Assembly (NCBI GenBank): GCA_963754015.1
Contig: CAVWEG010000004.1
Location: 332,734 to 396,733 of the forward strand
Direction of reading: 5' to 3'
Source of the DNA: Candidatus Dormiibacterota bacterium
Lineage (GTDB): Bacteria; Chloroflexota; Dormibacteria; Aeolococcales; Aeolococcaceae
Length of the DNA: 64,000 nucleotides
The notes under the pieces were generated by a model, which did no database searches, was not told where the DNA came from, and saw nothing but the letters and a program-made list of their open reading frames with translations. Positions 4,834 through 24,546 of this stretch are shown in pieces (within the stretch, counting starts at the first letter, position 1; every line of letters begins with the position of its first letter). Made by a program: the position numbers and the translations under genes.

Positions 4834-5556
4834 TTACGAGCTCGCGTCGGCCCCCGCCAAGGGCGCTCCCGCCTCTCCTCGCGAATGCGCGTCCCACTTC
4901 CCATCGCGGATCGCCAGGTGGACGTCGCACCGCGCGTCCACTGCCGGGTCATGCGTCGCCACGAGCAGCGTCGCACCCGTGCGAGCTTGGAGTGCAATCA
5001 GCATGTCGATGATCGCTACCCCCGTCGCCGTGTCGAGATTGCCAGTGGGTTCGTCAGCGAGGAGCAGCGGCGGTTCAACAATCAGCGCGCGCGCGATGGC
5101 CACTCGCTGTTGTTCGCCTCCGGATAACTCTGACGGCAGCGCATCCCCGCGACCGTCGAGGCCAACCTCTTCTAATAACTCGCGAGCCCGACGCTGCAAC
5201 GGCTTCCCAGCCTGATAGGGAAGCAAAGGTGCAGCGACGTTGTCAGCGGCGGTGAGCGCCGGCAACAGGTGAAATCGTTGGAACACGAAGCCGACCCTGC
5301 GACGATACGCGACCAACTTCCGACGTGGCAGTCCGTCGAGTTGCGTCTCCCCAACGAGTAACGTGCCCGAGGTCAGCGTGTCCATGCCGCCGATGACATG
5401 GAGCAGCGTGGATTTGCCTGAGCCAGACGGACCGGTGATCACGACCAGCGAACCTGACACGACGTCCAAGTCAAGGTGATCCAGTGCGGTCTGCGAACGT
5501 TCGCCAGCCGGATACTGACGTGTCAACCCACGCCCGGTGATCGCGACTCCTGGCAT
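4834..5556 (-). CDS. ABC transporter ATP-binding protein (MacB/LolD type)
   Basis: Walker [13 protein letters not shown] signature [15 protein letters not shown], Walker B LLLADEP. Lies immediately downstream of the FtsX-type permease. Confidence 0.85.
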
Positions 5557-5559
5557 CCG

Positions 5560-8398: not shown

Positions 8399-8568
8399 TC
8401 CACCATCATGGACCGCTGCACAGGAGCGGTCTAGGGCCAAACGCCGGGGCCGCCAGATGGACAGGAGCAACGTGGATCGATGGGCCGATCTCCGGTCCGA
8501 CCTGCACTTGACACGCGCCGCGGATGCTGGTATGACGGTCGCGATCAGGAAAAACATCTGGAGGGCAT

Positions 8569-8757
8569 GTGATGTTGGGACGCCTCGCCGATCGGATGGT
8601 GTCAAAGCTCCTACCCCACGCCCACGCGAGCGCCCAATGCACGCCGTTCTGTACCCCAAACGATGCTTGTGGATGCACCTGTGGGGGGACGAACTGTCAT
8701 CGCAACGTGTTCTCGAATTGCCACATCACCTGCTTGTGCCCGGCCGCGTGCCCGTAG
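8569..8757 (+). CDS. Cys-rich small peptide (62 aa, 10 Cys in the C-terminal 39 aa), putative secreted disulfide-rich peptide or RiPP-like precursor
   Basis: GGAGGG lies 6-7 nt upstream of ATG 8572 (GTG at 8569). Sequence MMLGRLADRMVSKLLPHAHA|SAQCTPFCTPNDACGCTCGGTNCHRNVFSNCHITCLCPAACP. Immediately followed by MauE-like, thioredoxin-like, ABC exporter and S26 peptidase genes. Confidence 0.45.
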   Translation: MMLGRLADRMVSKLLPHAHASAQCTPFCTPNDACGCTCGGTNCHRNVFSNCHITCLCPAACP

Positions 8758-8851
8758 TCGGGGCTGACGCACAACTTCACTGACGGGTAGCTTGAGGCTG
8801 GTCGCAAATCACCGCCTCAGGTAAGCGGGCTGCAGATCTGGAGGCGCGGCT

Positions 8852-9382
8852 TTGGCGTACGTCGTACTGTGCTGCCGTTTGCTGCTCGGCGCAACATTCG
8901 TCGCATCGCTGGCAACCAAACTCCGGTCTCGCGCGACGCTGCACGAGTTCTTGGCCGCTGCGGGAGCCCTGCTGCGGAGTGACTCGCCCTTGGTCCGCTT
9001 GCTCGCCGTAACCTCGATTGCCACCGAACTCTTGATTGTGATCACACTGCTGATCCCAGCGTTGGTTACCGCAGGGTTCGCGCTGACCGCTCTGTTGCTG
9101 CTCGTCTATACGCTGGCCATCGCCCGGGCATTGCAGCACGGGGTGACGACGCCGTGCCGCTGCATCGGAACCTCGAGTGATCCGCTCCATTCGTGGTTGA
9201 TCCTCCGCAATGCAGTCCTGTTCACCGTGTCAATCGTCGGTATTGCGACATCCTTGGCAGGCAGCCCGGCAGTCGGGTTCACGACCGCGCTGGCAGTCTC
9301 CGTGGCGATCGCCATCTTCGGCCTCGCCCTCGTGATGTCATTCGACGACCTCGTGTACCTTGCGCGCCGGAACCCGATGTGA
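8852..9382 (+). CDS. MauE/DoxX-family membrane protein (disulfide-bond formation accessory)
   Basis: 176 aa with four predicted TM helices and a CxC (TPCRCIG) in a loop. Sits where mauE sits relative to the mauD-like thioredoxin. Confidence 0.55.
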   Translation: MAYVVLCCRLLLGATFVASLATKLRSRATLHEFLAAAGALLRSDSPLVRLLAVTSIATELLIVITLLIPALVTAGFALTALLLLVYTLAIARALQHGVTTPCRCIGTSSDPLHSWLILRNAVLFTVSIVGIATSLAGSPAVGFTTALAVSVAIAIFGLALVMSFDDLVYLARRNPM

Positions 9383-9535
9383 CCGTCGGGAGTTTCGCGC
9401 TCGCATCCGTGGCGGTGGCGATCAGCCTCGTCAACCTCCTCCTAATCCTCGGGATCGTGCGCCGAATGCGCCAGATGGAACCGATGGTTCCGGCCGCATA
9501 TTTCGAAATCGAGTTCGGGTCCCGCGCCCGGCTCC

Positions 9536-9934
9536 GTGCTCCCGGAGTTCAATGCGCGAACGACCAGCGGGCAGCAGGCACACGGCTCAGCACTCGCAAC
9601 AAACCACGGGCTCATGGCTTTTCTCTCGGTGGGTTGTAGCGCGTGCCATGAGCAGATCCCGCTGCTCAACGCTTACGTAGCCCGCGAGCGCCTCGATCCC
9701 GACCATGCCTTGATTGTGGTGAGCGGTGACCCCGACGGACGGAGCGAATACGCGCAACAGGCCGCGTCATTTGCTCATGTCGTTGTCGAAGCGGCGAACG
9801 GCCCTCTCACCCGAATCTTTGATATCAAGGCGTTCCCGACGGTGCTCGCCCTGCACGACGGCCGAGTCCAAGCGAACGCCCCCAGTGTGAACGCGCTCCA
9901 CCATGAGACGGCGCGCTCGCGCGCGGGGAGCTGA
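9536..9934 (+). CDS. Thioredoxin-fold thiol:disulfide oxidoreductase (MauD/TlpA/redoxin-like)
   Basis: Contains FLSVGCSACHEQIPLL (WCxxC-type active site) and an upstream LPEF...G strand pattern. A TM helix that could serve as the membrane anchor is encoded in another frame just upstream (9380-9530), so an N-terminal frameshift is possible. Confidence 0.55.
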   Translation: MLPEFNARTTSGQQAHGSALATNHGLMAFLSVGCSACHEQIPLLNAYVARERLDPDHALIVVSGDPDGRSEYAQQAASFAHVVVEAANGPLTRIFDIKAFPTVLALHDGRVQANAPSVNALHHETARSRAGS

Positions 9935-9946
9935 ATCGAAGCGGAT

Positions 9947-11785
9947 GTGACCCCGCTGAGGCCGTTGCGGGAGCGGGTGCTGTTTGCCTGTCGCCTGTGT
10001 GCGAAAGCAGGAAAGTTTCGTCTCCTTGCGATGCTGTTGACCAGCATCGCACAGGGCCTTGTTCCCGTCGCGTACGCGTTGCTCACCCGCACGCTCATTG
10101 ACGCGCTCGTCGCCGATCAACGGTCGGCTGCGATTGCCGCGCTGGTCGGAATCGCGATTACCTCAGCAGCGCTCATCGTCCTGCCTTCACTCAGCCACTA
10201 CGTGGGCGCCGACGTGGACCGCCGACTTGAGGTCGACCTCCAAGCTGAACTCTTTGGCGCCGTGGCCGCGCTACCAAGTCTTCGCTTTCTGGAAAGCCCA
10301 CCTTTTCTCGACCGTGTTCGCCTGGCGCAGCAAGCAGCGCTGACAGGCCCAGCTCAATTGATCGGCGGCGGTTTCGCCTTCGTGCAAGGCGCGACTACCC
10401 TGGTCGGGTTCGTTGCTACCCTCCTGGCGCTCGATCCGTGGATCGCTATCCTCCTCGCCGCCAGCGCGCTTCCGATGGTGGTGGCGGAGATGCGGCTTGG
10501 CGCCTCGCGCGCAGCGGCCCGACTTCGGGGTACCCCGTTTCGTCGGCAGAGCCTCGCCTACACGTCCAGCATGATCGACGCCAACGTCGCCCAGGAGATC
10601 CAACTCTTCGGTATCGGCAGCTTCCTGCGCGACAAGCTGGTGCACGCGCTTCGAGGAGCCACTGACATTGAGAGGCGTCAGGATCGCCATGAGCTGTGGG
10701 TCCGTGCCCTGCTCGGCGTCCTCGCCGCGGTCGCCGCCGCAGCCAGTCTGGGCCTGATTGTCGTCGGCGCGCTGCAGCATCGGTTCAACGTTGGTGATGT
10801 GGCAATAGTCCTCGCCGCCATGTCCGCATTGCAGTTGACGTTCACGTCCCTCACGACCCAACTCGGCCAGATGGCCGAGGTGCTGCGCCTCCTTGATCAC
10901 TATCAGACCGTGCTCGAAACGGCTGCGCACCGCGAACCTCAGACGGCCGCAAATCCGACACGTCGTGAGGTTCCGGTTGTGCACCGTGGTATCGAGATGC
11001 GCGACGTCTGGTTCCGCTACGAGGAGGGTCAGCCGTGGGTATTACAGGGGGTCAACCTCACCATCCCCGCCCATGGCGCACTCGCGCTTGTCGGCCCAAA
11101 CGGCGCTGGCAAGACCACGATTGCGAAACTCCTCTGCCGCTTCTACGACCCAACCCATGGCGAGGTGCTCTGGGATGGGATCAACATCCGCGAGTTCCCA
11201 ATGGACGAGCTGCGGCGCCACATTGGCATCGTGCTGCAAGATCCGGTCACGTACGATTTGACGGCCGCCGAGAACATCGGCGTGGGCAGCCTCGGCCGTC
11301 TTCGAAATCAGCCGGCGATCGAAGCGGCGGCCGCCATGACCAGCCTCCATGACATCTTGCGAGCGCTCCCTCGTGGGTACGAGACACTGCTGAGTCGCCT
11401 CTACTTTGACGAGCGCAGCGACGACCCCGGCCTGCTGCTTTCGGTAGGGCAACAGCAACGGCTGGCACTTGCTCGCGCCCTACTCCGCGCAGAGGCTCAG
11501 TTACTCGTCCTTGATGAACCCACTGCGGCGCTCGACCCCCAGGCGGAAGCCGCAATCCATGAGCGCCTCCGCGATCTCCGTCATGGCCGATCGAGCCTGC
11601 TCATCTCGCACCGCCTCAGCACCACCCGCGACGCCGACTGCATCGCGGTGCTCAGTGCAGGTCGCGTCGTCGAGTCAGGCAACCATCAGGAGCTAATGAG
11701 CCTGGGAGGTCTCTACGCGCGGTTATTCACCGTACAGGCCGCGGGTTACGCCGAGCAGCCGGCTCCCCTGACCGCAAACGGGTGA
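9947..11785 (+). CDS. ABC transporter, fused permease/ATP-binding exporter (612 aa)
   Basis: Six-TM N-terminal domain, then Walker A GPNGAGKTT, signature LSVGQQQRLALARALL and Walker B LLVLDEPT. Confidence 0.85.
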   Translation: MTPLRPLRERVLFACRLCAKAGKFRLLAMLLTSIAQGLVPVAYALLTRTLIDALVADQRSAAIAALVGIAITSAALIVLPSLSHYVGADVDRRLEVDLQAELFGAVAALPSLRFLESPPFLDRVRLAQQAALTGPAQLIGGGFAFVQGATTLVGFVATLLALDPWIAILLAASALPMVVAEMRLGASRAAARLRGTPFRRQSLAYTSSMIDANVAQEIQLFGIGSFLRDKLVHALRGATDIERRQDRHELWVRALLGVLAAVAAAASLGLIVVGALQHRFNVGDVAIVLAAMSALQLTFTSLTTQLGQMAEVLRLLDHYQTVLETAAHREPQTAANPTRREVPVVHRGIEMRDVWFRYEEGQPWVLQGVNLTIPAHGALALVGPNGAGKTTIAKLLCRFYDPTHGEVLWDGINIREFPMDELRRHIGIVLQDPVTYDLTAAENIGVGSLGRLRNQPAIEAAAAMTSLHDILRALPRGYETLLSRLYFDERSDDPGLLLSVGQQQRLALARALLRAEAQLLVLDEPTAALDPQAEAAIHERLRDLRHGRSSLLISHRLSTTRDADCIAVLSAGRVVESGNHQELMSLGGLYARLFTVQAAGYAEQPAPLTANG

Positions 11786-12380
11786 TGACCACGCCGACAA
11801 TACGCTCGACCCGAATCGCACCCCACGCTTTCGAATCCAGGCTCAACGGGTTATCGCCGAGCACGATCACCCGCCCAGCAGCGATGCGACGGCCGGAAAG
11901 ATCGGGATGGGCGGCCACAACAACTGGCGGGTACGCGTCACGCGCAAGTGCGACCACCCGTTTCACCATCCATGGAACCCCAGTGCTATGCCCCGTGTCG
12001 GCTCCATCCGTGCGAGGAGGACGGAGCACGACGATTGAGCCGCGTCGGGGATGCACCCAAACACGGCGCACAAGCACCCGATCCCCCGACCGCAACGCTG
12101 GCTCCATGCTCCCGCCGTCAACTTCGACAACGATGAGGGTATGTCGGAGGATCCACACCCCGACGATCGCGCAGCTGACGAGCGAGAAGGCCCGCGTCGG
12201 TACACGCTTTCGGTGTTGGGGCGCCGAGGGTGTGCCATGCAAGAATCCCACTGTTTGGCGCCTCCCGGTGGGATGGATCGCTTGTTGACCGTCAGTGTGT
12301 CTGGTTTCGGGATCAGGAACGAAGGCGTCAAACGCCCCATCGAACCGCTCGCCACGGCCGCTCCTGAGCCGGGCAATCAC
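11727..12380 (-). CDS. Signal peptidase I (S26) homolog, stand-alone
   Basis: TM anchor LVSCAIVGVWIL. Catalytic Ser box GGSMEPAL, Lys box WMVKRVVAL and VLGDNPLSLDSKAWG box. Convergent with the end of the ABC exporter. Confidence 0.6.
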   Translation of the reverse strand: MIARLRSGRGERFDGAFDAFVPDPETRHTDGQQAIHPTGRRQTVGFLHGTPSAPQHRKRVPTRAFSLVSCAIVGVWILRHTLIVVEVDGGSMEPALRSGDRVLVRRVWVHPRRGSIVVLRPPRTDGADTGHSTGVPWMVKRVVALARDAYPPVVVAAHPDLSGRRIAAGRVIVLGDNPLSLDSKAWGAIRVERIVGVVITRLRSGEPAARRNPRPVR

Positions 12381-12533: not shown

Positions 12534-13082
12534 TCAGGACGTCGAGTTGCCGCCCTTGATGGTGACGTTCTTGTAGCCCATGACGAGCACAAGGACACCG
12601 ATGACGCACATGCCCGCGCAGACTGCCAGTGACACGTATGCCGCGGTGGGTTGTTTGGAGGAGATCGCGGTGATGACGAAGATGAATACCACACCAAGCG
12701 CAAGCACCGAGGCCAGCGCGATCGTAAAGCAAACTCGCGCCATTGGCCATAACATCACCGGATCGCTGAACTGCACATCACCCCTGAATCCTGTCGAGGA
12801 GATTGCCGCACTAACAGCGTTTGCCTTCTCTTGCGAAGTACCGCTCGCCGGCAGTGCCGCGTTGACGAGCGTTTGAGCTGCCGTTTGCGTCAGCGTGCTA
12901 TTGAGCGCGACGTGCCGCGCCAAATCGACCGGAACGGCCTGGTCATTGGCAGCTCCCTGAATAACCGTTGCGAGCTGAGCCGGCTCGAGCGCCGCAGGGC
13001 GCGCCCCACCCGAGCCGTTTGTCAGAGCGATGACGCTTTGAAAGCGCTTGATGGGGTCGGTGTAGTCTGGATCGAACGCCAT
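12534..13082 (-). CDS. Membrane protein (soluble N-terminal domain plus two C-terminal TM helices)
   Basis: ORF track. C-terminal hydrophobic helices CFTIALASVLALGVVFIFVITAI and AAYVSLAVCAGMCVIGVLVLVMGY. Confidence 0.4.
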   Translation of the reverse strand: MAFDPDYTDPIKRFQSVIALTNGSGGARPAALEPAQLATVIQGAANDQAVPVDLARHVALNSTLTQTAAQTLVNAALPASGTSQEKANAVSAAISSTGFRGDVQFSDPVMLWPMARVCFTIALASVLALGVVFIFVITAISSKQPTAAYVSLAVCAGMCVIGVLVLVMGYKNVTIKGGNSTS

Positions 13083-13858
13083 GATCCCTCCTTCCGTGTG
13101 CTTCCGAGAATCAACGAACTACCTTCAGAAATGGTAACGCGAACACAGTCGCCCTTTCAGTGACTCGTCGCCGCCGGCGCACGGATCCTAGGATCCGTAT
13201 GTCAGACCTTCGGGCGAGGCCTAGCGGTCTTCGCAGGAGCTCGACGTGGGATTGGCACGGAGCGGTAATCGGTGACGCCAGCGAAACCGTCACTTCAGCA
13301 GAAGCGCGCGACCCATCGCATCAGGTCCTCGCCGATGCCTATCGCGAAGCAAAGTTGAATGCAGGATCCGCGACAAGCGCCCGCCCAGACACGTGCCGGT
13401 CGTCAGTGTGAGCAGTTTGGCGGCGTCGCGCCAATGACACGACACGTGTGTGGATAGCCGACGCAAGAAATCAGTCTGTTGGTAGAGGGTAGAGTGCCGC
13501 GGCCCTCTGTATCGCGTCCCGGTGAGTCCACCTTGCCAAGGGTGCCCCGGACGTATGGCACGGTCCGCGTTGGGGCCAACGTTGGCAACATCGGTGGTCC
13601 GCTGCTCGGCGCAGCCGCCGTCACGGCGTCGCTGCCGAGTGTCCTCGCTGTGGTTGCCGCGGTCCTAGGTGCTGCCGTCGTGGTGATCAGCCTCACCGTC
13701 CCGCCAGACCGAAACTTCGCCGAGAGGCCATAGGACTATTAGCCAGATGTGCAGCCACACGCGCTCCACGCGCTGCTATTGGACCGTCGACGTGCCTCCT
13801 CGTCCTCTCGGGCGGCGTCCCGGCGATCACATTCACGTGGCTGTACCGGTGGCCGTGA

Positions 13859-14617
13859 CTAAGCGGCCGCACTCTGCGGTGACCTTGCAACCTGCATCAC
13901 GTCCTCCCTGTTCAGTTCGTAGTCAGCGACAGGGCTCTCACCAACTCTCAGCGTCTTGTCCGGTGGATGCTTCTCAACGAGTCTTCTCATCGCCCGCTCG
14001 ATTGGGTGATCGACCAAACGATCGATCTGGTCATCAGTGAGGCCCTTTTGGCGGTAGTGGTCGCGCAGGCCCTCCGCGGAGTATTCGATGTGGAGGTGGC
14101 GGCGGATCACAAACAGTCTCCCGACCGTCTCAAAGACATCGGGGTGATACACGTCATCCACAATCATTAGCTGGTGCGCGAGTGTTCCGATGCCGTTGAA
14201 ACGTAGCAGCTCGGCGAAGAGTTGATATGAACCCATCACGCGCTTGAGGTCGTGACCGAGATCGTGTAGTGACAGCAGGTCGTCGGCTACTCCGCGCTCG
14301 CGCGCCACAAATCGGATGTACTCACCGAAACTCACCCTTTGGAAATTGGTCAGGTCACGATCGAGATGCTTGGTGAGTTCGCTCTTGCCGATGCCGCCTT
14401 CGCCACTGACGAGGATCACCTCCGCGCCCTTAGCCGCACCGAAGCCTCGCGTCAGGCTGACAGCCCAACTTCCCGCGCCGACGCAGACGGCTGCCCCAAT
14501 GATCCAATACAACGTCCCCAGCGACCAGTTGGCGGCCATCCTGACGATCAGCAACGCAATCACCGTCACGGCGCCGGCGATTACGGGCCAAGCAGCACGT
14601 CGATTCAGGTTCAGCAT
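13859..14617 (-). CDS. Membrane-anchored P-loop NMP-kinase-like protein (CMP-kinase-like)
   Basis: One or two TM helices, then VILVSGEGGIGKSELTKHL (Walker A) and SFGEYIRFVARERG. This is paralogous to the SFGDYVRHVARERG motif of the 15443-16009 protein and resembles the Cmk DTGAMYR region. Start trimmed to Met36, which overlaps the stop of the upstream membrane-protein gene by 1 nt. Confidence 0.5.
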   Translation of the reverse strand: MLNLNRRAAWPVIAGAVTVIALLIVRMAANWSLGTLYWIIGAAVCVGAGSWAVSLTRGFGAAKGAEVILVSGEGGIGKSELTKHLDRDLTNFQRVSFGEYIRFVARERGVADDLLSLHDLGHDLKRVMGSYQLFAELLRFNGIGTLAHQLMIVDDVYHPDVFETVGRLFVIRRHLHIEYSAEGLRDHYRQKGLTDDQIDRLVDHPIERAMRRLVEKHPPDKTLRVGESPVADYELNREDVMQVARSPQSAAA

Positions 14618-15087
14618 CAAGACCCGGTCGCCACTGCCACAAGAAGCGCAGCAAGCAACGTACACGCCGCCCCACGACGAACAGACTGCGCGAACAGGTT
14701 CCTCGGGAGGGGCCTGATCCATCGGTTCACCACGAACCAGACGAATCCGCAGGCAAAGCCAGCAAAGGAACCGATCGCCGTAGCCCCAGTCAGCGCATCG
14801 TAATCGTTCGGGTTAAGGTCGATGACGTTAGTGGATACCTTGAGCGCAACCAGTCCGGCAACTACTCCTACGACACTCAGCCCAACCACGAATCCAGCGA
14901 TGTTTGCGGCTGCTGCCACGAATGCCTCCGTCCAAGGCGTGTCTTTACCTTTGCGCGCGGCAAACCACTCGAGACTTGCTCCGCAAATGAGCCCAGCGGC
15001 GGCACCAACCGCGCCGAATGCCCCGGGCAACCCGATGCCTACACGATGCGGGATAAGGATCACACCCAGTACCTTCACGGTGCTCAC
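14617..15087 (-). CDS. Membrane protein (four predicted TM helices)
   Basis: ORF track. Hydrophobic segments throughout. Translationally coupled to the downstream TM-kinase gene. Confidence 0.4.
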   Translation of the reverse strand: MSTVKVLGVILIPHRVGIGLPGAFGAVGAAAGLICGASLEWFAARKGKDTPWTEAFVAAAANIAGFVVGLSVVGVVAGLVALKVSTNVIDLNPNDYDALTGATAIGSFAGFACGFVWFVVNRWIRPLPRNLFAQSVRRGAACTLLAALLVAVATGS

Positions 15088-15442: not shown

Positions 15443-16009
15443 CTAGTACTCGATCGCCGGCGCGCTGATCCTCTGCAAATCCCGCCGTAGAAACTGATAT
15501 GCAGTTTCGGCCGCTTCCTCGATCGTTAGGCCCCCTTCGACCGTGTAATCCGCAAGGTCGACAACTGCACCGACTCCTGACTCAGTCGCATGGGCCTCGA
15601 CGGCCTCGGCCAGTTTGACGCCGATCCCCCGCGCTTGCAGGCGCTTACTTCGTAACGCACTATCGACGCTGACCGCGACGAGCCGAAACGGCAACGGGTG
15701 GACTATTCGTGCCAGTGCGTGGATCGCCTCGACATGACGCACACCGTCCACGACCACGGAGCCTCGTGCGTAGCCTGAAAAGTTCAGAACCGCTCGGCAA
15801 AATGACGGCCAGCCGACCGCGATCAACTCATCGCCGATCGCTTGCAGCACCTCGCGCCGGCCGCAATCGATGCCGCGTTCGCGGGCAACGTGTCGAACGT
15901 AATCGCCGAAACTCGCATATGCACAATCCATGCGCGCCGCGAGTTCATGGGCGAGTGTGGTCTTGCCACTCCCGATTCGACCCGCGACCCCGACGGCGAC
16001 TGGCCTCAT
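15443..16009 (-). CDS. P-loop nucleoside-monophosphate kinase-like protein (cytidylate-kinase-like)
   Basis: VAVGVAGRIGSGKTTLAHELAARM followed by SFGDYVRHVARERGID, matching the Cmk layout (G-x-G-x-GKxT ... DTGAMYR). ATGA overlap with the upstream ASCH gene. Confidence 0.55.
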   Translation of the reverse strand: MRPVAVGVAGRIGSGKTTLAHELAARMDCAYASFGDYVRHVARERGIDCGRREVLQAIGDELIAVGWPSFCRAVLNFSGYARGSVVVDGVRHVEAIHALARIVHPLPFRLVAVSVDSALRSKRLQARGIGVKLAEAVEAHATESGVGAVVDLADYTVEGGLTIEEAAETAYQFLRRDLQRISAPAIEY

Positions 16010-16506
16010 AAGAGTCCAGGTGTGGGTTGATCAACAAGGACGACCCACCCCCGTCGGTCTCGCTTTGGGAGTGCTAGTTGCGGGAGCGCGCGTGCCTCGG
16101 TGATCTGCATGAGAGTGGCGAATACCGCATCGCGTCGATCCTCCCAGAACGCTCCTTGGGGGCAAATCGCAGGGCCAAACCGTTCCCGAATCTCCGCCCA
16201 GGTTCTAGGTGTCAAACGGTAATCCCACACAGCACTCACGGTGCACGCCCCCACAAGTGGTCCTGAAGAACGCTTGAGGAGCACGATGTCCCTTGGGGTC
16301 ACTCTGCCGTATGGAACACTCCGTTTCCGGGAGAAGCGCGATTCTACTGTCTTCGAGCGATCCAGCACGAACTGGAGGTACGGTTCAACCAAGATAGCGA
16401 TGTGCAATCCGACCCGTGGCGTGTCCTTGTCCATCGCCTCATCAAACAGATCGGACCAAACCCGCTCACGTCGCACCGCGTTGCGGAGATGCTCAAGGAG
16501 CATCAA
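16006..16506 (-). CDS. ASCH-domain (PUA-like) protein
   Basis: LHIAILVEPYLQFVLDRSKTVESRF fits the ASCH beta-barrel signature (..ik..y...i.sG.KtvExR). ATGA overlaps with both neighbouring genes. Confidence 0.5.
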   Translation of the reverse strand: MMLLEHLRNAVRRERVWSDLFDEAMDKDTPRVGLHIAILVEPYLQFVLDRSKTVESRFSRKRSVPYGRVTPRDIVLLKRSSGPLVGACTVSAVWDYRLTPRTWAEIRERFGPAICPQGAFWEDRRDAVFATLMQITEARALPQLALPKRDRRGWVVLVDQPTPGLL

Positions 16507-17786
16507 CTCGCCATCTGCTCACAACGGCGTGGCGGTTTCCAGCCAAGCTTGGCAAGCTCACGGCTTTCGTCGCGACAGATCCCCCGCAGTTGGGTTGTAG
16601 ACATTGCGACTCGGATTCCTTCCGCTCGGGTCAGTGGTCTGTCGACCCTAGCCGCAACCTGCTGCTCAGGGTCAACGCCAAGGGTCATCGCATCCAGGAT
16701 CACTGGGAGCACGTTGGGCGACGCACAACTGAAGACGCGATTACCTGAGGTCCAGACATCGACTTGGTCGCGAATTGGATGCCGCCGACTCACGTCAGCA
16801 AGGACATCTCCGTCTACAACTCGATGGAGGACCGGATCGATGACAGAGCTCTCATGCTTCCTGATACGGACCCGAACCCAACCAACGGCTCGCTCATCCC
16901 AAAGCGCCTGCGCGCCCATCCAATCGGGCGCGGTTGGCGGTCTGCCGGAGGTGGTGAGTATTTGTAAGTTTCCGCGTCGCCAATCCATCGGCAAGTCGCG
17001 CCACCCCGCGGCGAAGAGCGCATTGATCTCGAACGGCGGTGACAAGTATCGGATGGCCGTCGGTAAGGCTCTGATCGCTCGAAGTCCATGTGCCGCGGCA
17101 CGCTCTCGGAAATGAGCTCGATCACGGCTCCAGGCCGGCCTCGTTCCCGGCGCCGGCAGCGTAATAAACAGAGGCGCGCCCGAACGAGCGCAACTTGCGG
17201 CTGCCCACAGGAATGCGTCTATGTGTTCGGGGTACCAAGGAGGATCAGCAACGACCGCCGCCGCCGATAGATCGGGGATCTTATCGAGAGTCAGATCACA
17301 CACATGAAGTGTGCCAGGTGGTCCCGCCGACGCTAATCGGTCGAGAATTATTGAACTGTAATCTACCAACACGAAGCGACGATTGAGTCGGCGACTGTAA
17401 GCGGCGAGGTAGAGGCTGGGAGTCCCGAGAAGGACGACGGTGTCGCCTGGCTGAGTGGCTGCGAGTGTGCGAGCAAGCAGGTCATCGATGGCCTCGGGCG
17501 CATACCGCCAGTCGAAATCGAGGGGATGAGGAGGTGGGAGCACGCTTCCTAAGGTCTTCGAGGGCAGCGGCCGATGCGTGGCTCTAGATAGAACGGCGCG
17601 ATGAGCGTCTGGCCCGAGTGTCCCCGCGAGCCGTAGCCGATTGAGGCCGTCTTCGACGAGCGACGGGTACACCCCGGGCAGGGCTCGAACCAATTCATCA
17701 AAGTCATGCACGCCCTGTGCTATGGCGTCACCGATCCAGTGATCAACCCGGCGACGGAACGCCGCGGTGTCTCGAGCGTGACTCAC
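16503..17786 (-). CDS. MT-A70-like (DPPW-motif) N6-adenine-type methyltransferase
   Basis: Motif IV AAVVADPPWYPEH (DPPW). Likely GTG start at 17786 forming a GTGA overlap with the stop of the radical-SAM ORF; the ORF-track start at 17867 would overlap by 84 nt. Confidence 0.55.
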   Translation of the reverse strand: MSHARDTAAFRRRVDHWIGDAIAQGVHDFDELVRALPGVYPSLVEDGLNRLRLAGTLGPDAHRAVLSRATHRPLPSKTLGSVLPPPHPLDFDWRYAPEAIDDLLARTLAATQPGDTVVLLGTPSLYLAAYSRRLNRRFVLVDYSSIILDRLASAGPPGTLHVCDLTLDKIPDLSAAAVVADPPWYPEHIDAFLWAAASCARSGAPLFITLPAPGTRPAWSRDRAHFRERAAAHGLRAIRALPTAIRYLSPPFEINALFAAGWRDLPMDWRRGNLQILTTSGRPPTAPDWMGAQALWDERAVGWVRVRIRKHESSVIDPVLHRVVDGDVLADVSRRHPIRDQVDVWTSGNRVFSCASPNVLPVILDAMTLGVDPEQQVAARVDRPLTRAEGIRVAMSTTQLRGICRDESRELAKLGWKPPRRCEQMAS

Positions 17787-18851
17787 GCACGTGCTCCGAG
17801 CGGTACGCTGGAGATGCGCATAGCGCGATCGCGGGATGAAAAGCGGCGTTCCAGTTCGGCTTGCCATGCTTCAACGGCGACGTGTTGCACCTGCATTGAT
17901 TCCCGCCTAACGCTATTCAGCCGAGGCGTAACCGGTCCATACTCGATGATCTCAAGCGGCACCAACCGGAGGGGAAGCGCCTCCGTGATGCTCTGGAGGC
18001 GATCAACGAAGGTGCACATAGCACGCGGGAGACCCTGCGTACTGGGACCGGTGAACGTGGCATATGCATATAGGTCGAGTCCCGTCGAGAGCAGCTTCGC
18101 GAAGAGTTCGAACTGACGGTCGAACAGTGCTGGGGCGGCCTCGGTGTTGAACGCGAAGGAAACTTCGTCGAAACCCTTGAAGCAGCACACGCGTCCATAT
18201 CCTTGATAGTCGGACATGGTCCTGCGCGTGGCGCCATCTAGGAACTTCCAGAAGTAGTCATTGCTCAAATTGTCGTCGGACCAGAGGTACACCGAGTTCC
18301 TGCAGCCGTGCATCAATCAGCGCCTTCATCATCCATGGCACCCACTCGGGCGTCAGGTCAGGCTGACCACCAGTCAGGTCGATCATTGGTGGCCGTGGGT
18401 CGACGCTGGCGTAGCGCTCGACGAGCTCGCGGGGCGTCACCCAGATGCCCTTGGCGGCTCCGAGAAGGTCAAACGGCACGAAGCAATACCAGCATCGCCA
18501 GTTGCAAGCGGCGTTTTGGAACACCTGAGCCTCTAACTCGTCGGATTCACGCAGTCCCAAGAACGTTGCAGCGGGGTCAATAGGCAGCGCATTTTCCGGC
18601 CATCTCTCGCTCGTCGAACGGCGGAAGTGTCGCAGCCGACCAATACCACCGCAGTTTGCAGGCTCCGTGAGGTCCGCCTCTTGGCCGCTTCCACGGAAAT
18701 CCGCGACAAGCACCCTCCCTTCAGCCAAATTGATAGCTCGTGGGCGGAGACGCGCAGAGTAGCTATCCGTGTCAATCATTAGAGGTGATGTGCGCTTGCG
18801 TGCGGTATGGCACGTGGGTTGGACCCTCCGGGAGGTCAGGCCAACGATCAT
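17783..18851 (-). CDS. Radical SAM enzyme, split into two overlapping ORFs (18258-18851 and 17783-18316) by an apparent frameshift
   Basis: CxxxCxxC cluster NAACNWRCWYCFVPF and a glycine-rich SAM motif LTGGQPDL in the N-terminal ORF. The C-terminal ORF continues in another frame with a 58-nt overlap. Combined length is about 355 aa. Confidence 0.55.
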
Positions 18852-19401
18852 CTATGTAGCGCACGACCAGGCCAGCCAGGTACTCTCGCTCTTCAGTTGT
18901 GAGGGCGCGGCCCTTCGGGATATCGTGCCAGTACGCGATGCAGGTGCGGCAACACGACGCGGTCGCATGTTGAGCGTAGTACAGAACATTGCCGTCGAAC
19001 GGTGTCTGGCGACCATCGTTTCGGGGGCTCTCTGCACCCACTGACATCTCGATGCGACGCGAGGCAGCCAGAAACAAGGTCGATCGGCCCTTGCGCAGCG
19101 CGTGATTTCTCGCCCGCTCGTCGAACTCGAGGTGCCAGAAGTGATGGCGAATCAGTTCCTGGCGGAGTTCGGTAAAGGTGTGGTCGACGTCCTCAAGACG
19201 GCGCTCGTGTACGCGAGGCCAATCGACCAGACGGGCATAGCAAACACGGCACGCGCCGCCCAGGCCTGCATCAAGGAGTTTCTTGCTGCTCTTGAAGCAA
19301 TGCAAATCGTTGTCACAGTCGGTGCTCGTGCAACTGATTGCCAGCTTGGGTAGCGACGGAGGGGCCTCTGGAGCTGCCATCACGCTACCATCGCCTGACA
19401 A
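18772..19401 (-). CDS. Hypothetical protein (209 aa) with Cys-containing motifs (CTSTDC...LHC; ATASCCRTC)
   Basis: ORF track. Directly upstream of, and overlapping, the radical-SAM ORF. No confident family assignment. Confidence 0.35.
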   Translation of the reverse strand: MSGDGSVMAAPEAPPSLPKLAISCTSTDCDNDLHCFKSSKKLLDAGLGGACRVCYARLVDWPRVHERRLEDVDHTFTELRQELIRHHFWHLEFDERARNHALRKGRSTLFLAASRRIEMSVGAESPRNDGRQTPFDGNVLYYAQHATASCCRTCIAYWHDIPKGRALTTEEREYLAGLVVRYIDDRWPDLPEGPTHVPYRTQAHITSND

Positions 19402-20796
19402 AGCAGATCGCGGTCCAGTGGATTGAGTGATGCGAGGTCAGCGCGCTCAAGGAGCGCATCGCGACTGGCCTCCCACGGATCCGGTCCCGATGATTGCAGA
19501 TTCGCCGCTGCACCCCACCAATTGATGCCTTGCATCGATAGACGAAATGCAAGGTAATTCGCCACGGCGCCGGTATCAACGCGCTCTGCTGCTGCGATAT
19601 TCGGTACCACACTCTTGAGACGCTCGACGCTTCCTCGGGCTCCGTCGACGCAAAGTTGGACAATGGCTTCGGCACGTCCATCGAGCAAGACATCGCCTGC
19701 AAAGCGATTCGCCATCTGCTCCGAATCGTCAGGGCTCGCCTCGTCTCCGTCAATGATGGAGCCGTCGCGATCTCCGAGGTCCAGTGTTACGTGCCCAATT
19801 TCATGGAGGAGATCGAACATCCAACGCGAGGCACTGCGATGGCCCTGTTTGAGTACGACCACCTCACGAGTATCGACGCGCCATACCGCGGCATGAAAAG
19901 CGCCGGGGTCGGCGAGTGGAAGGACGGGAATACCAAGATCCCACACGAACCGTAGCAAGTCGCCGAAACTGCCGGTCGACCCACGCTGCTGCCACGAAGT
20001 ACGAAAGGCCGACGCATGGGCAGGCACAAGCTGTTTCGGGAGGTCCTGAGTTGCGTGGAGCGTGACCAAGGCAAGGTAGTGAGCGTAGACCGTGTAGGCT
20101 TCGGCTTTCTCCTTGTCGCTGCCCTTAGGCAACTTGAAACTGGTACTTGCAAGCACTCGTCGATCCGGCTCTAAGGGCTCGCCGGAAAGGAGCGAACCAG
20201 TCTCCCATCCAAACACTCTGCCAACGCGTGAAGCGAAGTTGATGAGAGTCCCCGCATCGCCGGCGCCGCCCAGCCCATCTCGAAGTGCAGCAGGGGCAAG
20301 GCGGCGGCGTACGAAGGCTAAGCCCAGTCCCATCTCGCTCAGCCGCTGGGCCACTGCCCTACTCGTGGGCAGGGCATCGGGAAGCTCTAGACCTTGCACG
20401 TCGAGTTCCGCTGCGACCTCACGCAATCGACTCAGGCTCGCTGACGCGTATTGCGTCGCCTCATATCGCTGAATCTGCTGCTCCTTGAGACCAAGACGGT
20501 CTGCGAGCTGTCGCTGACTGAGTTCCTGCCGCGATGCGTGCACGAACAAGAAGCCGAGGGAGATCGTCGACAGTGGATAGGACTCCAACCGGGGCGCGCC
20601 CCTGGCGAAGATCATCGTATTCGCGGAGTTGAGCGCGCAGTTCGTCAACCTGACCCTCGACGGCATCGATCTCGAGTTGACGGCGGAGCTCACCCTCTGC
20701 GGCTTCCAGCGGGCGCTGTTGAACATCCTTGAGCAGCGACGCGAGGCGATCAGCCTGTGCCTTCGCAGTCCGGTACTGGACATCGTTGGTGATCAT
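19380..20796 (-). CDS. Coiled-coil/HTH-XRE/ImmA-IrrE zinc-metallopeptidase fusion, with an apparent 1-bp frameshift near 20523
   Basis: Helix 1 of the HTH (DDLPRLLVRARIAAG) lies in the frame of the 111-aa ORF. It continues as LSQRQLADRLGLKEQQIQRYE in the frame of the 467-aa ORF, with the junction at a ggaactc homopolymer. HEIGH zinc motif (LLHEIGHVTLD). Confidence 0.65.
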
Positions 20797-21381
20797 CTAC
20801 ATCAACTCCTTCAAGCTGATCGCCACGATCCCTTTAGCCCCGCCCGTGGCCTTGTCCTTTTGAAAGAAGTCCACGAGGGGTGCGCCACTCGAGGCCTCGA
20901 TTACGTTCGGCAAGATGTCTCCGCGATACAGCGCCTGCTGGGCGGCCCGCGGCGGGCGAACATCTCGGAGGACAGGGGTGAGCAGTGAAATCGTCACGCC
21001 GCCCATCTCCCAGCACACGTCGTAGTCATTCGGCACCCCTTTGTCTGTGACGAAACTGCCGTCAAGATAGACCCGCTCACATCCAGCCTCCCCGAGGTGC
21101 TCAAGCGCCAAGCGAAGCCCGCGAAGCTGTTCGATCCGGTGCGTGGTACCCCCGAAGCGAGTCGCGACCTCGTCCCACTTTGCGTCGTGGATTCCCGGTG
21201 GTAGCAGGCCTCGGCGGTCGTAGTCGGGAATCATGACCACAACTATAACGTTGTGGTCATGAGAACGCAAGCTCTCGGCCAACTCGACCGATTGACCAAA
21301 TCCGCCGACGTTGAACGGCGGACGACCGACCATCGAGATCCGCTGAGCGTCCTGATGCCGGGGCACGCGCGCAAATGCCAT
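20797..21381 (-). CDS. Nucleotidyltransferase-fold protein (putative)
   Basis: YLDGSFVTDKGVPNDYDVCW resembles the minimal-NTase hG[GS]x9-13Dh[DE]h motif. Immediately upstream of the HTH-ImmA gene. Confidence 0.35.
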   Translation of the reverse strand: MAFARVPRHQDAQRISMVGRPPFNVGGFGQSVELAESLRSHDHNVIVVVMIPDYDRRGLLPPGIHDAKWDEVATRFGGTTHRIEQLRGLRLALEHLGEAGCERVYLDGSFVTDKGVPNDYDVCWEMGGVTISLLTPVLRDVRPPRAAQQALYRGDILPNVIEASSGAPLVDFFQKDKATGGAKGIVAISLKELM

Positions 21382-22503: not shown

Positions 22504-23811
22504 TCACGTTCTTGACCGCTCGTTGATCCAGGACTCATATCGGTCGTAGACATATCGCGGCGAGCTCAGTCCCAGCGCCGAAGAAACCTCCTGAATCCCC
22601 GCTCCACCGCGCAGCATGGTCACAGCCGCCGTGTCGCGAAGGTCTTGAAACGTATAGACAGGGATGTGGACCGATCTGCAGCGTTCGCGCAGCCGTTGGC
22701 TCATCTCGCTGCTCTGATACGGCTTGCCGGAGCGAGCCGCAACCACCAGCTCCAGATCGCCTGGTGCACTCGGCACCTGTCTCCGTATCTGCGCAGCCCG
22801 GCTGCGTTGCAGCGCTTCGAGAACCTCGGTCGTCAGCTGCAGACGCCGCGCCTGGCCGGCTTTGAGCGGCACCGACTGGGTTCCGTAGCGAGTGCTGTCG
22901 TTGTCGCCGGGCTCGAGTGTGCGAATCAACTTACTCCTCACCTCGATAGCCCGCTCCTCGACGAGGACGCGGCTCCAGCGCAGGTCGAGAATTTCACCCA
23001 GATCCATCCCCGTCCGAAGCGCGAGCAGGCAGGCCGCGTTGAGCTGGGGATCGCGGAGCCCAAGGAGGCGTTGTTCGTCCCCGGGCTCGAGAAGGCGAAC
23101 CGCGACCGTCGCCGGGGCCGGCCACGTGTAGTGCCCCGCCGCCGGGTTCCCGGCAAGCAAACCAGCATCCATTGCAGCTTGGAGCGCGGCGTGCAAGGTC
23201 GCGTGACACCGCTTGGCTGTCCCGCCACTCATGCCCTTAGCCAGCAGATGCACGTAGCCCTCCCGCACCCGAGGAGCACGCAGGCCGAGTAGGACCTCAT
23301 CGCCAAACTCGGGGATGAGGTGCAAGCGAACGCTCTCTTCGTAGCGATGCCAGGAGCGCGAATCCAGATCCGGTTTGCGCAGTTCGAGCCACTTCCCGAG
23401 CCAGTGCGCGACGCTCGGGTTTCCACGCCCAGTTGCATCGAGTAAGTGTTGTTCTGCCTCATCGGCTGTTGCCCCCGTGACCGAGACTCGCTTACCTGTC
23501 GCTTGGTCGACGCCTCGGGCGCGCCACGTCCCTCCCTCGATCGCTGGGGGAGTAACCGTGCCCTGGCCTCGAGGTCGGTGCGCGCGGGTCGCCGCGACAA
23601 GAGCGGGAGCCGAATGGTTCTCCGCCGCCATCGCCGCGGCAATCTTCGGCTCCAGCTCCTCCTTCGTCGGGGCATAGATATCCCGGCGGACCTTCCGCCC
23701 AGTACTGTCGACGGCCCAGTAGCGTCCCCGCCAGAGGCCGTCCGGTCGCGGCTTGGTATCCAGCGACGGTGGACGCCGAGGCAAAGCAGACATGGTGGGC
23801 GAGCTTAGCAA
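22504..23811 (-). CDS. Tyrosine-type site-specific recombinase (phage integrase family)
   Basis: C-terminal catalytic region ...TFQDLRDTAAVTMLRGGAGIQEVSSALGLSSPRYVYDRY (R-H/D-R-Y pattern with terminal Tyr). Adjacent to the tRNA 3' end. Confidence 0.85.
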   Translation of the reverse strand: MLSSPTMSALPRRPPSLDTKPRPDGLWRGRYWAVDSTGRKVRRDIYAPTKEELEPKIAAAMAAENHSAPALVAATRAHRPRGQGTVTPPAIEGGTWRARGVDQATGKRVSVTGATADEAEQHLLDATGRGNPSVAHWLGKWLELRKPDLDSRSWHRYEESVRLHLIPEFGDEVLLGLRAPRVREGYVHLLAKGMSGGTAKRCHATLHAALQAAMDAGLLAGNPAAGHYTWPAPATVAVRLLEPGDEQRLLGLRDPQLNAACLLALRTGMDLGEILDLRWSRVLVEERAIEVRSKLIRTLEPGDNDSTRYGTQSVPLKAGQARRLQLTTEVLEALQRSRAAQIRRQVPSAPGDLELVVAARSGKPYQSSEMSQRLRERCRSVHIPVYTFQDLRDTAAVTMLRGGAGIQEVSSALGLSSPRYVYDRYESWINERSRT

Positions 23812-24034
23812 AACTGGGGTAAAAGTGGGGTAAAAAAGGCGTTCAAAACGCTACGGCGAATCCGGAGCATGTATCATCTCGGTAGATATGGACTCGATAT
23901 GGACTCTGAGCTGGGGTACAGACCCCTCCAGCCACTCCTTTGACCCTAATCTGACCCTAATGTGGGGTGGGCGCTACTGGGCACTGGCGGGCACTGGCGT
24001 ATTCGGATTGACCGACACTGAGATCAAAAGACGC
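23812..24034. repeat. AT-rich att-site arm region with four pairs of short tandem direct repeats
   Basis: Seen directly: ggggtaaaaGTggggtaaaa, atatggactcGatatggactc, tgaccctaatCtgaccctaat, gggcactggcgggcactggcg. Lies between the integrase start and the tRNA-Ser 3' end. Confidence 0.45.
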
Positions 24035-24123
24035 GGAGCGAGAGGGATTCGAACCCTCGATACCAGTTTCCCGGTATACCGCATTTCCAATGCGGCGCCC
24101 TCGGCCAACTAGGCGATCGCTCC
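24035..24123 (-). tRNA. tRNA-Ser (anticodon GGA)
   Basis: Hand-folded reverse complement: acceptor GGAGCGA/TCGCTCC; anticodon stem CCGCA/TGCGG with loop TTGGAAA; long variable arm; T-arm GAGGG-TTCGAAT-CCCTC. No encoded CCA. Confidence 0.85.
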
Positions 24124-24248
24124 TCAGCGATTGTATCCGCGCCTACGCGGCCAGCCCCGCGCCGGGACGCCTCAGTGCGTTTCGGCGACAATGACCGCAG
24201 GGTATCTACGTCTCTAGCTACTCATCGCCTCAGGGGGTAACCCACACC

Positions 24249-24404
24249 ATGTGTGTCCTGTTCGCCTTTCTGCTATTCACCGTCCTCCTCTTCGGGCTCG
24301 GCTTCGCCCTGCACGTGCTCTGGTGGATCGCGCTGATTTTCCTGATCTTCTGGCTGATCGGCCTTGCCTTCCGGCCGCGCGGGGGGCGCTGGTACTACTG
24401 GTAG
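24249..24404 (+). CDS. Small hydrophobic membrane protein (51 aa, W/Y-rich C-terminus)
   Basis: AGGGGG lies ~10 nt upstream of the ATG. MCVLFAFLLFTVLLFGLGFALHVLWWIALIFLIFWLIGLAFRPRGGRWYYW. Sits between two tRNA-Ser genes. Confidence 0.4.
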   Translation: MCVLFAFLLFTVLLFGLGFALHVLWWIALIFLIFWLIGLAFRPRGGRWYYW

Positions 24405-24457
24405 GGCTCGGCTGACGCCGGGTCTGCTCCAGGCTCGCCCGTATACTCGACGCTCCC

Positions 24458-24546
<89 letters not shown>

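Follow-up and report, generated by a model that had tools for sequence, protein, structure and literature searches.

The window, a 64,000-nt stretch of DNA, was found to carry a tightly packed, self-regulated cassette of seven genes on its minus strand (15443-21262). In 5'-to-3' order, these encode a DUF6932 protein, a fusion of an XRE helix-turn-helix domain with an M78 Zn-peptidase (HTH-M78), a DUF4186 protein, a radical SAM enzyme, a DPPW transferase, an ASCH protein and an NMP-kinase-like protein. A previous sequence-only reading had described the last five as co-oriented ORFs, at coordinates reproduced here, and had taken them for the whole operon; DUF6932 and HTH-M78 are two further translationally coupled genes upstream of these five. 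Neither a nuclease nor a membrane effector is encoded in the cassette. Downstream on the same strand lies a lineage-specific gene pair (13859-15087), otherwise confined to the nearest relatives, L088 and L090: one gene encodes a small membrane protein (14617-15087), the other a kinase paralogue that is membrane-anchored and weakly matches AAA_18 (13859-14617).

At the gene junctions, the ATGA overlap at 16006-16009 and the GTGA overlap at 17783-17786 were present as previously described, whereas the supposed ATGA at 16503-16506 is actually TTGA, with a TTG start and an ATG one codon later. An 80-nt overlap proposed between the Cys-motif ORF, i.e., DUF4186, and the radical SAM gene turned out to be a longest-ORF artefact; homologues support a start at ATG 18779, giving an overlap of 8 nt (ATGATTGA). 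The HTH-M78/DUF4186 junction in the window reads TGATG. Across the recurrent loci, median gaps between cassette genes ranged from -8 to +5.5 nt.

Two genes of the window copy are split. The radical SAM gene carries one extra A at 18297-18298, a site across which its homologues, single ORFs of 331-337 aa, read LQD-SVYLW. The HTH-M78 gene, with homologues that are single ORFs of 471-484 aa, carries one extra A at 20523-20524, as mapped by tblastn. The former split had been recognised earlier and taken as real, and the latter had been overlooked. Since both frameshifts are an identical +A within an identical 10-mer, and the regulator frameshift is missing from an independent assembly (contig L089), the two are probably assembly errors; if they were real, the window copy would be inactive.

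Conservation of the gene order elsewhere, on which the earlier proposal hinged, was evident from its recurrence in about 80 independent loci, which is far beyond chance. The loci are patchily scattered over many bacterial phyla and at least one archaeal lineage (a thaumarchaeon), at 50-59% radical SAM identity. Among 85 loci, HTH-M78 and DUF4186 were each present in 82, followed by the kinase (78), ASCH (75), the transferase (73) and DUF6932 (66). No further flanking gene family was conserved around the cassette loci. No description of the seven-gene cassette was found, in agreement with the initial impression that the five-gene combination was not a described system.

The cassette is carried on seven plasmids, six of them conjugative, and also on integrase islands; in Tolypothrix, it lies within a strain-specific 18.4-kb insertion (PMC9679502). 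The integrase-island setting proposed for the operon was borne out by a minus-strand tyrosine integrase gene at the island edge (22504-23811; Phage_integrase, 4e-11), adjoined by a minus-strand tRNA-Ser gene (24033-24123; ARAGORN), and the composition profile revealed GC to climb from about 0.60 to 0.65-0.70 at this edge (22504-24123). Neighbours at the loci include type I RM, TIR, pAgo and PD-(D/E)XK genes as well as transposases, and a SIR2 gene is located within the window itself; this association with defence islands is anecdotal and uncontrolled. Relatives of the cassette were absent from 50,697 phage records, IMG/VR and PHROGs.

These data bear on the idea that the cassette serves damage-inducible repair or maintenance of nucleic acids on mobile elements rather than defence. 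An IrrE/ImmA-type switch would then turn on a lyase-like radical SAM enzyme (cf. spore photoproduct lyase), together with a methyltransferase, a nucleotidyltransferase, a kinase acting on polynucleotides and an ASCH protein that binds lesions. We regard this as quite unlikely, given that ligase, nuclease and glycosylase are all absent, that the distribution over islands and plasmids is patchy rather than vertically inherited, and that the neighbours are defence genes and transposases.

The operon is preceded by an operator-like perfect palindrome (21231-21262), which overlaps the start codon of gene 1 and has the form TCATGACCACAAC-N6-GTTGTGGTCATGA, with 13-nt arms of 100% complementarity and the core ACAAC-N6-GTTGT. 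In 1.23 Mb from 79 loci, this core occurred 43 times versus 1.2 expected, a 35-fold over-representation, and 40 of the 43 cores sit at a fixed position, 386-544 nt upstream of the HTH-M78 start (36 loci). The DUF6932 gene (20797-21234, minus strand) begins at ATG 21234 as judged from homologues, with the longest ORF reaching 21381. Its small product (PF22014, 110.5 bits vs. a gathering score of 27) is nucleotidyltransferase-like, with the minimal pol-beta motif DGSFVTxKxxPxDYD; it weakly matches the PADLOC candidate PDC-M63A (1.6e-6) and gave no sequence match in the PDB. The HTH-M78 regulator (19380-20796, minus strand) combines HTH_3 (2.6e-6) with Peptidase_M78 (9.1e-6) and the Zn-peptidase motif HEIGH. 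PADLOC RmrA models match its peptidase segment (E = 4.8e-10), and RmrT toxin models matched none of the cassette proteins.

An XRE HTH and an M78 Zn-peptidase likewise head defence or mobile-element operons in RosmerTA, with its RmrA antitoxin (bioRxiv 10.1101/2022.05.11.491447), and in CapH/CapP and ImmR/ImmA. The cassette differs from these in fusing both functions into one protein of about 475 aa, and in having DUF6932 before the regulator and five enzymes, instead of a single toxin, after it. Taken singly, DUF6932 and HTH-M78 look like free-standing defence or TA components, and DUF6932 is missing from 19 of the 85 loci, as would be expected if a Rosmer-like TA pair merely co-travelled with an unrelated metabolic or natural-product operon of five genes. 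This we consider most improbable in view of the retention of HTH-M78 in nearly all loci, its translational coupling to DUF4186 (median gap of 3 nt in the recurrent loci) and the single conserved palindrome, which precedes gene 1. A possible nucleotidyltransferase-radical SAM fusion (P0381; Polbeta E of about 1e-3, under the curated cut-off) also speaks, weakly, against separate modules.

Other fusions were found between DUF4186 and radical SAM (L006), ASCH and DUF4186 (L039, L085), ASCH and kinase (L042, L037) and radical SAM and ASCH (P0468). At the sequence level, the fusions appear to tie the parts of the cassette together. Most are single examples, for which an assembly artefact is possible.

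The Cys-motif protein of the sequence-only reading is indeed Cys-rich and was identified as DUF4186 (18772-19380, minus strand; PF13811, 102 bits vs. a gathering score of 25). This basic, Cys/His-rich protein has an N-terminal ribbon-like CxxxxC..H..CxxC motif and an AQHATAxCCRxCxxxWH motif. Median pI values are 8.8 for DUF4186 and 8.9 for ASCH vs. 5.2 for the radical SAM enzyme; charge and motifs suggest that DUF4186 and ASCH may bind nucleic acids.

The radical SAM enzyme (17783-18779, minus strand), with the previously noted CNWRCWYCF motif, has the CX3CX2C cluster motif and partial TIM-barrel fold of its superfamily. Also conserved are an N-terminal extension (about 85 aa) and additional cysteines (Cys43 and the VCCFKG motif). 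No NCBIfam model scored above 15 bits and no housekeeping family could be assigned; when its profile was searched against 1.84 billion representative proteins, only 516 matches were obtained. By these profile comparisons, the enzyme is an orphan outside the housekeeping families, as the earlier proposal presupposed. From the PFL activase/QueE group, it is set apart by an identity of 11-12%, the N-terminal extension and extra cysteines, and a cassette devoid of a glycyl-radical partner and queuosine genes; Foldseek did not confirm a relationship. The cognate glycyl-radical enzyme that would mark a glycyl-radical activase was not found nearby: the cassette contains no PFL-like or glycyl-radical domain and no other flanking family is conserved.

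With the N-terminal fragment (window 18258-18851) as the query, the viperin model NF038283 gave 14.9 bits vs. a cut-off of 180, and PADLOC pVip gave 18.4 bits over residues 114-173 only, around the CX3CX2C loop. Viperin/pVip membership was not supported: the fragment missed the HMM thresholds, and viperin is not the closest solved fold. The cassette resembles pVip loci in the placement of a radical SAM gene beside an NMP-type kinase, the occurrence in defence islands and the lack of a nuclease effector; apart from its radical SAM enzyme, it differs in a core that also needs DUF4186 and in the addition of the DPPW transferase, ASCH and the regulator pair.

Three parts make up the SAM-dependent transferase (16503-17786, minus strand): a winged-helix-like domain at the N-terminus, a Rossmann domain with LGxPS and the expected DPPWY, and, at the C-terminus, a conserved beta/alpha domain. 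Motif I is retained in the family-specific form LGxPS, along with an acidic residue after strand 2, so that the earlier expectation of an intact motif I was correct. The assignment to MT-A70 did not hold: PF05063 matched neither the window protein nor any of 39 homologues (E<=0.1), the permuted order with DPPW before motif I is absent, and only the DPPW tetrapeptide is shared with MT-A70/METTL3. PF10237 (N6-adenineMlase; N6AMT2/EEF1AKMT1-type) was matched by 28 of the 39 homologues (best 5.7e-7), whereas the window protein remained under the Pfam cut-off (14.6 vs. 23.2 bits) and has about 160 additional conserved C-terminal residues. Structural neighbours include METTL5, Trm14/TrmN and M.BseCI, which, like the winged-helix-like domain, hint at nucleic acid as the substrate; the aminopropyltransferase BpsA (5xnc) differs in lacking DPPW.

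In a protein-directed alternative, the radical SAM enzyme would be activase-like and the transferase a Lys/Gln methyltransferase of the EEF1AKMT1 kind; by modifying some conserved protein of host or phage, e.g., a translation factor, they would cause TA-style growth arrest. We deem this very unlikely: the cassette encodes no glycyl-radical enzyme or RVxG-type motif, PFL-AE was not recovered by Foldseek, and ASCH and the NMP kinase would have no obvious role.

The ASCH/PUA-like identity of gene 6 (16006-16506, minus strand), already suggested in the sequence-only reading, is supported at the family level by the profile searches, in which PF04266 matched 27 of 34 homologues (best 3e-6), with the window copy alone at 16.2 bits vs. 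a cut-off of 21.2. The basic protein contains GxKTxESR, conforming to the canonical GxKxxExR motif, with K52, E55 and R57 invariant, and KRDRRGW; a weak PDB match was obtained to 2z0t. For the P-loop kinase (15443-16009, minus strand; AAA_18, 1.5e-10), the NMP-kinase fold proposed earlier was corroborated by end-to-end profile alignment (positions 5-172) with AdkA-like 3lw7 (6e-12) and with AK1 (1e-7), and the motifs GxxxSGKT (P-loop), SFGDYVR, DGVRH, RxxR and HxTE, which include the NMP-binding GDxxR and DGxR signatures and the LID arginines, define an NMP kinase over the full length. The likeness to Cmk went no further, as a genuine cmk was rejected by TIGR00017 (12.7 vs. 135.6 bits) and TIGR02173 (23.4 vs. 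102.1 bits).

The kinase motifs are those of free-nucleotide NMP kinases, which favours a small-molecule substrate. In the viperin-like scheme put forward in the sequence-only reading, the kinase could supply or activate a nucleotide from which the radical SAM enzyme makes a toxic or chain-terminating analogue, assisted by DUF4186 in an Fe-S or electron-transfer capacity, and the transferase and ASCH would tailor or detoxify the product. This reading, which we hold to be unlikely, draws on the near-constant presence of the kinase, its weak matches to a phage dNMP kinase and the kinase domain of an anti-phage dCTP deaminase, the lack of a nuclease, and dGTPase or dCTP-deaminase-like genes as immediate neighbours of the cassette in 13 loci. 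Further in its favour, the radical SAM enzyme is conserved better than any other component (median identity of 54% to the window copy), as expected for a universal small substrate, and its highest Foldseek TM-score was to a fungal viperin-like enzyme (0.47/0.54).

Among other known systems, the validated defence system Ophion (radical SAM + PHP + PRTase) also contains a radical SAM enzyme, and its partner genes differ from those of the cassette. MADS membership was rejected: the mad1-8 set is absent, mad2 (2e-4) and mad8 (4e-4) only weakly match the transferase and the kinase, respectively, and the PADLOC models mad3, mad8 and AriA cross-match ordinary ABC ATPases. In phage thymidine hypermodification, a P-loop 5-hmdU DNA kinase and radical SAM tailoring enzymes act sequentially on a base of the polymer; these pathways are phage-encoded and dependent on aGPT-pyrophosphorylase. 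The cassette likewise pairs a P-loop kinase with a radical SAM enzyme and differs in having neither relatives in the phage collections searched nor aGPT-pyrophosphorylase.

We tentatively read the cassette as a self-contained, horizontally mobile conflict system, probably anti-phage, with a regulatory half and an effector half that modifies nucleic acid; its role in defence, the signal that induces it, its substrate and every chemical step are all inferred. The regulatory half would be a minimal nucleotidyltransferase plus a regulator of the RmrA, ImmA/IrrE/CapP type. Its HTH domain would bind ACAAC-N6-GTTGT at the operon start and hold the operon silent, until an infection or DNA-damage cue triggers the M78 peptidase and repression is relieved. 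The effector half, genes 3-7, would modify nucleic acid chemically: the basic Zn-ribbon protein DUF4186 may recruit the acidic radical SAM enzyme onto DNA or RNA, where the latter would perform radical chemistry on a target that is universally conserved, basic ASCH may recognise a base or RNA and cooperate with the P-loop kinase, and the winged-helix DPPW transferase may place a methyl (less likely an aminoalkyl) group onto an exocyclic amine. DUF4186, the radical SAM enzyme and the kinase would form the core, with the transferase and ASCH as a dispensable tailoring pair. Given the lack of a nuclease and of a membrane effector, replication would be halted either by the modification as such or by ASCH cleaving RNA.

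In a more specific form, possible though held with low confidence, DUF4186 and the radical SAM enzyme would introduce a new radical base or sugar mark into DNA or RNA, followed by ASCH-guided phosphorylation by the kinase and N-alkylation by the DPPW transferase, the whole acting as a host-encoded weapon induced by infection. We see in the cassette a promising candidate for a new defence system that is inducible and has nucleic acids or nucleotides as its targets. If hypermodification does serve as a weapon and not as a self-mark, both the radical SAM chemistry and the class of defence, shared by many bacterial phyla and by archaea, would be new.

All ORFs listed in the sequence-only reading were found on the minus strand where that reading had placed them, and two of its start/stop overlaps were read directly, namely ATGA at 16006-16009, which forms the ASCH/kinase junction, and GTGA at 17783-17786, where the radical SAM gene meets the transferase gene. 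The ATGA claimed for the transferase/ASCH junction is actually TTGA, followed by ATG one codon on. The 80-nt overlap described for the radical SAM gene with the Cys-rich ORF vanishes with the homologue-supported start ATG at 18779, with which the overlap is 8 nt (ATGATTGA). Coupling of the five genes recognised earlier was confirmed, but the unit is larger, with two more genes upstream, coding for an XRE-type HTH regulator fused to an M78 peptidase (HTH-M78) and for a DUF6932 protein. The HTH-M78 stop codon overlaps the DUF4186 start in TGATG, and the DUF6932 gene directly abuts the HTH-M78 gene; the translationally coupled unit therefore comprises seven genes (15443-21234, approximately 6 kb).

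As had been noticed from the sequence, the radical SAM gene is split by a frameshift in the window, caused by a single A inserted at 18297-18298. At this site the closest relative (90% identity) has GCAGGACTC, the two spellings being GCAGGACTC without and GCAGGAACTC with the extra A. A second extra A was found in the regulator gene at 20523-20524, and both insertions lie in one identical 10-mer, GCAGGA[A]CTC (18294-18303 and 20520-20529), of which a third copy, at 4479-4488, is in frame within a SIR2 gene. The window was compared at the frameshift sites with an independent Logan assembly of run ERR11523676, in which contig L089 spans the regulator site without the extra A, leaving the regulator gene intact, contig L086 matches the window at 100% identity and breaks off precisely at the radical SAM frameshift site, and contig L090 shows 99.85% identity to the window. 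Most simply, this is read as an assembly or base-calling error tied to the sequence context rather than pseudogenisation, and the organism itself would then probably carry an intact cassette.

Searching with the frameshift-corrected radical SAM sequence revealed more than 3,400 database clusters at 90% identity, all of about 333 aa and 57-90% identical. More than 12 database fragments (within P0433-P0515) start at a conserved Met-Met near residue 153; these are most likely gene calls on truncated contigs rather than recurrent frameshifts. The identical seven-gene order was found on the contigs of three homologues, and a scan of one genome per species yielded 80 further loci from Cyanobacteriota, Actinomycetota, Planctomycetota, Chloroflexota, Acidobacteriota, Bacteroidota, Verrucomicrobiota, Gemmatimonadota, Pseudomonadota, Myxococcota, Bacillota, Nitrospirota and one thaumarchaeon. 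Cultured carriers are Tolypothrix PCC 7712 and Kribbella sindirgiensis DSM 27082, both with all seven genes, Paenibacillus sp. HW567, with a minimal form of five genes, and Roseovarius THAF8.

Synteny was thus found elsewhere, with the seven-gene order recurring among 85 loci analysed by tblastn. HTH-M78 and DUF4186 were each detected in 82 of these, the kinase in 78, ASCH in 75, the transferase in 73 and DUF6932 in 66. Transferase and ASCH are both absent from four loci and the transferase alone from another four; the core is therefore formed by the regulator, DUF4186, the radical SAM enzyme and the kinase. Conservation is highest in the radical SAM enzyme (median 54% identity to the window) and lowest in the transferase (34%) and the kinase (36%). 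Clustering of every flanking ORF gave no further conserved family. Median gaps at the six junctions range from -8 to +5.5 nt, and it is most improbable that the cassette consists of two unrelated modules that travel together.

At the DUF6932 start codon, and overlapping it, is a perfect inverted repeat with 13-nt arms (21231-21262). In 1.23 Mb of related loci, its core (ACAAC-N6-GTTGT, the spacer being AT-rich) was counted 43 times, against 1.2 copies expected, and 40 of the 43 copies, in 36 loci of several phyla, are placed directly before gene 1, 386-544 nt ahead of the HTH-M78 start. The arrangement matches that expected of an operator for the XRE-type HTH which the cassette itself encodes, and, with binding of the regulator predicted from the repeat, the cassette is apparently autoregulated. 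Neither sigma-70 promoters nor terminators were found above chance. That the cassette is a damage-inducible repair unit is considered quite unlikely.

In the window, the cassette lies within a low-GC island whose edge is marked by a tyrosine integrase and tRNA-Ser. At this boundary (24033-24546), two divergent tRNA-Ser genes with GGA and CGA anticodons are present, and the GC content climbs from about 0.60 to 0.65-0.70. No att direct repeat above chance was found within the window, and the far end of the island is therefore probably beyond position 1. In PLSDB, the cassette was found on seven plasmids, six of them conjugative, and one Roseovarius plasmid carries transfer genes on both sides of it. 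In Tolypothrix PCC 7712, it resides in an 18.4-kb insertion that the near-identical PCC 7601 does not have (PMC9679502).

Across the loci, neighbours of the cassette include type I RM, a TIR protein, pAgo with its nuclease, PD-(D/E)XK, HsdM, AbiLi, SoFic, transposases and recombinases, a neighbourhood that is compatible with a defence island. Immediately adjoining the cassette are dGTPase-type HD genes in six loci (cyanobacteria; locus L010, 11395-12819, and relatives) and dCTP-deaminase-like genes in seven (Dehalococcoidia; locus L051, 4173-4994, and relatives), which may reflect plain defence-island clustering or a functional tie to nucleotide pools.

Further gene sets were observed on the window's island. 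In the minus-strand region 822-4547, translational coupling links a PRTase-domain gene (1954-3486) with a SIR2_2 gene (3483-4547) that matches PADLOC PDC-S65, ThsA and Dsr1-like models, with a 403-aa ORF without family match downstream; the region is probably a separate defence module. The gene set between this module and the cassette (4834-12380) looks like an export or immunity system, with an ABC ATPase, an FtsX-type permease of 827 aa, a fused ABC transporter and a signal-peptidase-like gene (S26/S24). Just downstream of the cassette (13859-15087, minus strand) are genes for a small membrane protein and for a paralogue of the cassette kinase that is anchored in the membrane (GEGGIGKS...SFGEYIRFV); this pair, conserved in the closest relatives L088 and L090 alone, may be a lineage-specific add-on.

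The PADLOC mad3, mad8 and AriA models score down to 1e-32 on ordinary ABC-transporter ATPases (4834-5556 and 9947-11785 in the window; 12752-13621 in locus L006), and such matches therefore cannot be counted as defence genes. MADS was excluded, its matches being weak and its models prone to match ABC ATPases, and Ophion was excluded by its different gene set. No relatives of the radical SAM enzyme were found in 50,697 GenBank phage records or in IMG/VR, and DUF4186, radical SAM, transferase and ASCH matched no PHROG family; a phage origin or a phage DNA-hypermodification pathway was rejected on this basis. The cassette is a mobile, self-contained seven-gene unit located among defence genes and absent from the phage collections searched.

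Pfam assigned gene 1 to DUF6932 (110 bits), gene 2 to HTH_3 plus Peptidase_M78 and the Cys-motif protein to DUF4186 (102 bits), the last with a ribbon-like N-terminus (CxxxxC..H..CxxC), an AQHATAxCCRxCxxxWH motif and K/R-rich tails. The DUF6932 protein contains a minimal pol-beta nucleotidyltransferase motif, from which alone its putative assignment derives, since no PDB sequence match was obtained. The peptidase part of the regulator is matched at 5e-10 by PADLOC models of RmrA, the Zn-peptidase antitoxin of RosmerTA (bioRxiv 10.1101/2022.05.11.491447). ASCH was upheld, with 27 of 34 homologues matching PF04266 and an invariant GxKTxESR motif. The assignment of gene 5 to MT-A70 methyltransferases had to be abandoned, given no Pfam match, a wrong motif order and no structural match. 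PDB sequence-profile searches were uninformative for DUF4186, DUF6932, the transferase's C-terminal domain and the radical SAM enzyme, the last of which had no match below E = 0.02.

In an alignment of 55 radical SAM sequences, 71 of 331 positions are invariant, as is the CX3CX2C motif. A scan of the N-terminal fragment gave no NCBIfam model above 15 bits; the viperin model reached 14.9 bits with this fragment versus a cut-off of 180, and viperin membership was rejected. No glycyl-radical partner was found among cassette proteins or flanking families. The kinase, with its P-loop, GDxxR, DGxR and LID arginines, can be aligned over its full length to adenylate kinase 1 and to an archaeal AdkA-like protein (6e-12), so that its reading as an NMP kinase held, but a genuine cmk was excluded. 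These kinase motifs and the adjoining nucleotide-pool genes favour the viperin-like small-molecule scheme originally suggested, which is judged unlikely.

Median pI values are basic for DUF4186 (8.8) and ASCH (8.9) and acidic for the radical SAM enzyme (5.2) and the kinase (5.9). Occasional apparent fusions, mostly single cases, join DUF4186 to radical SAM (L006) and radical SAM to ASCH (homologue P0468); ASCH is also joined to the kinase (L042, L037) and to a second DUF4186 (L039, L085). Homologue P0381 is a possible Pol-beta domain-radical SAM fusion (Polbeta E ~1e-3, below the cut-off) and not a DUF4186 fusion; another fusion candidate, P0379, has an unrelated tail. Taken together, the fusions suggest one pathway in which both basic proteins may act as adaptors. 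We tentatively propose, at somewhat less than even confidence, an inducible nucleic-acid-modifying system in which DUF4186 and ASCH would serve the radical SAM enzyme and the kinase as adaptors; a protein-directed system is very unlikely.

The five-gene combination had been thought undescribed, and indeed no description of the cassette was found in full-text literature searches (DUF4186, DUF6932, and radical SAM combined with ASCH, COG2856, XRE, kinase or defence). Its genes are listed in one paper only, as unexplained strain-specific cargo (PMC9679502), RefSeq names them hypothetical protein, HTH regulator, DUF4186, radical SAM and AAA ATPase, and PADLOC 2023 holds no models for the five effector proteins. 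In kind, the cassette is placed with regulated multi-enzyme conflict systems on genomic islands in which a radical SAM enzyme is paired with a nucleotide kinase; there is a real, if minor, chance that its chemistry is categorically new. Should it carry out a novel radical SAM reaction on nucleotides or nucleic acids, this would be of interest to enzymologists and could give new antiviral nucleotide analogues or nucleic-acid modification tools. With its size of ~6 kb, self-regulation, putative operator and cultured carriers, the cassette is experimentally accessible. If it is a defence system, it would be an abundant and widely distributed addition, with an orphan radical SAM clade and DUF4186, neither of known function, at its core, and would provide the first biological roles for DUF4186, DUF6932 and the BpsA-like DPPW transferase.
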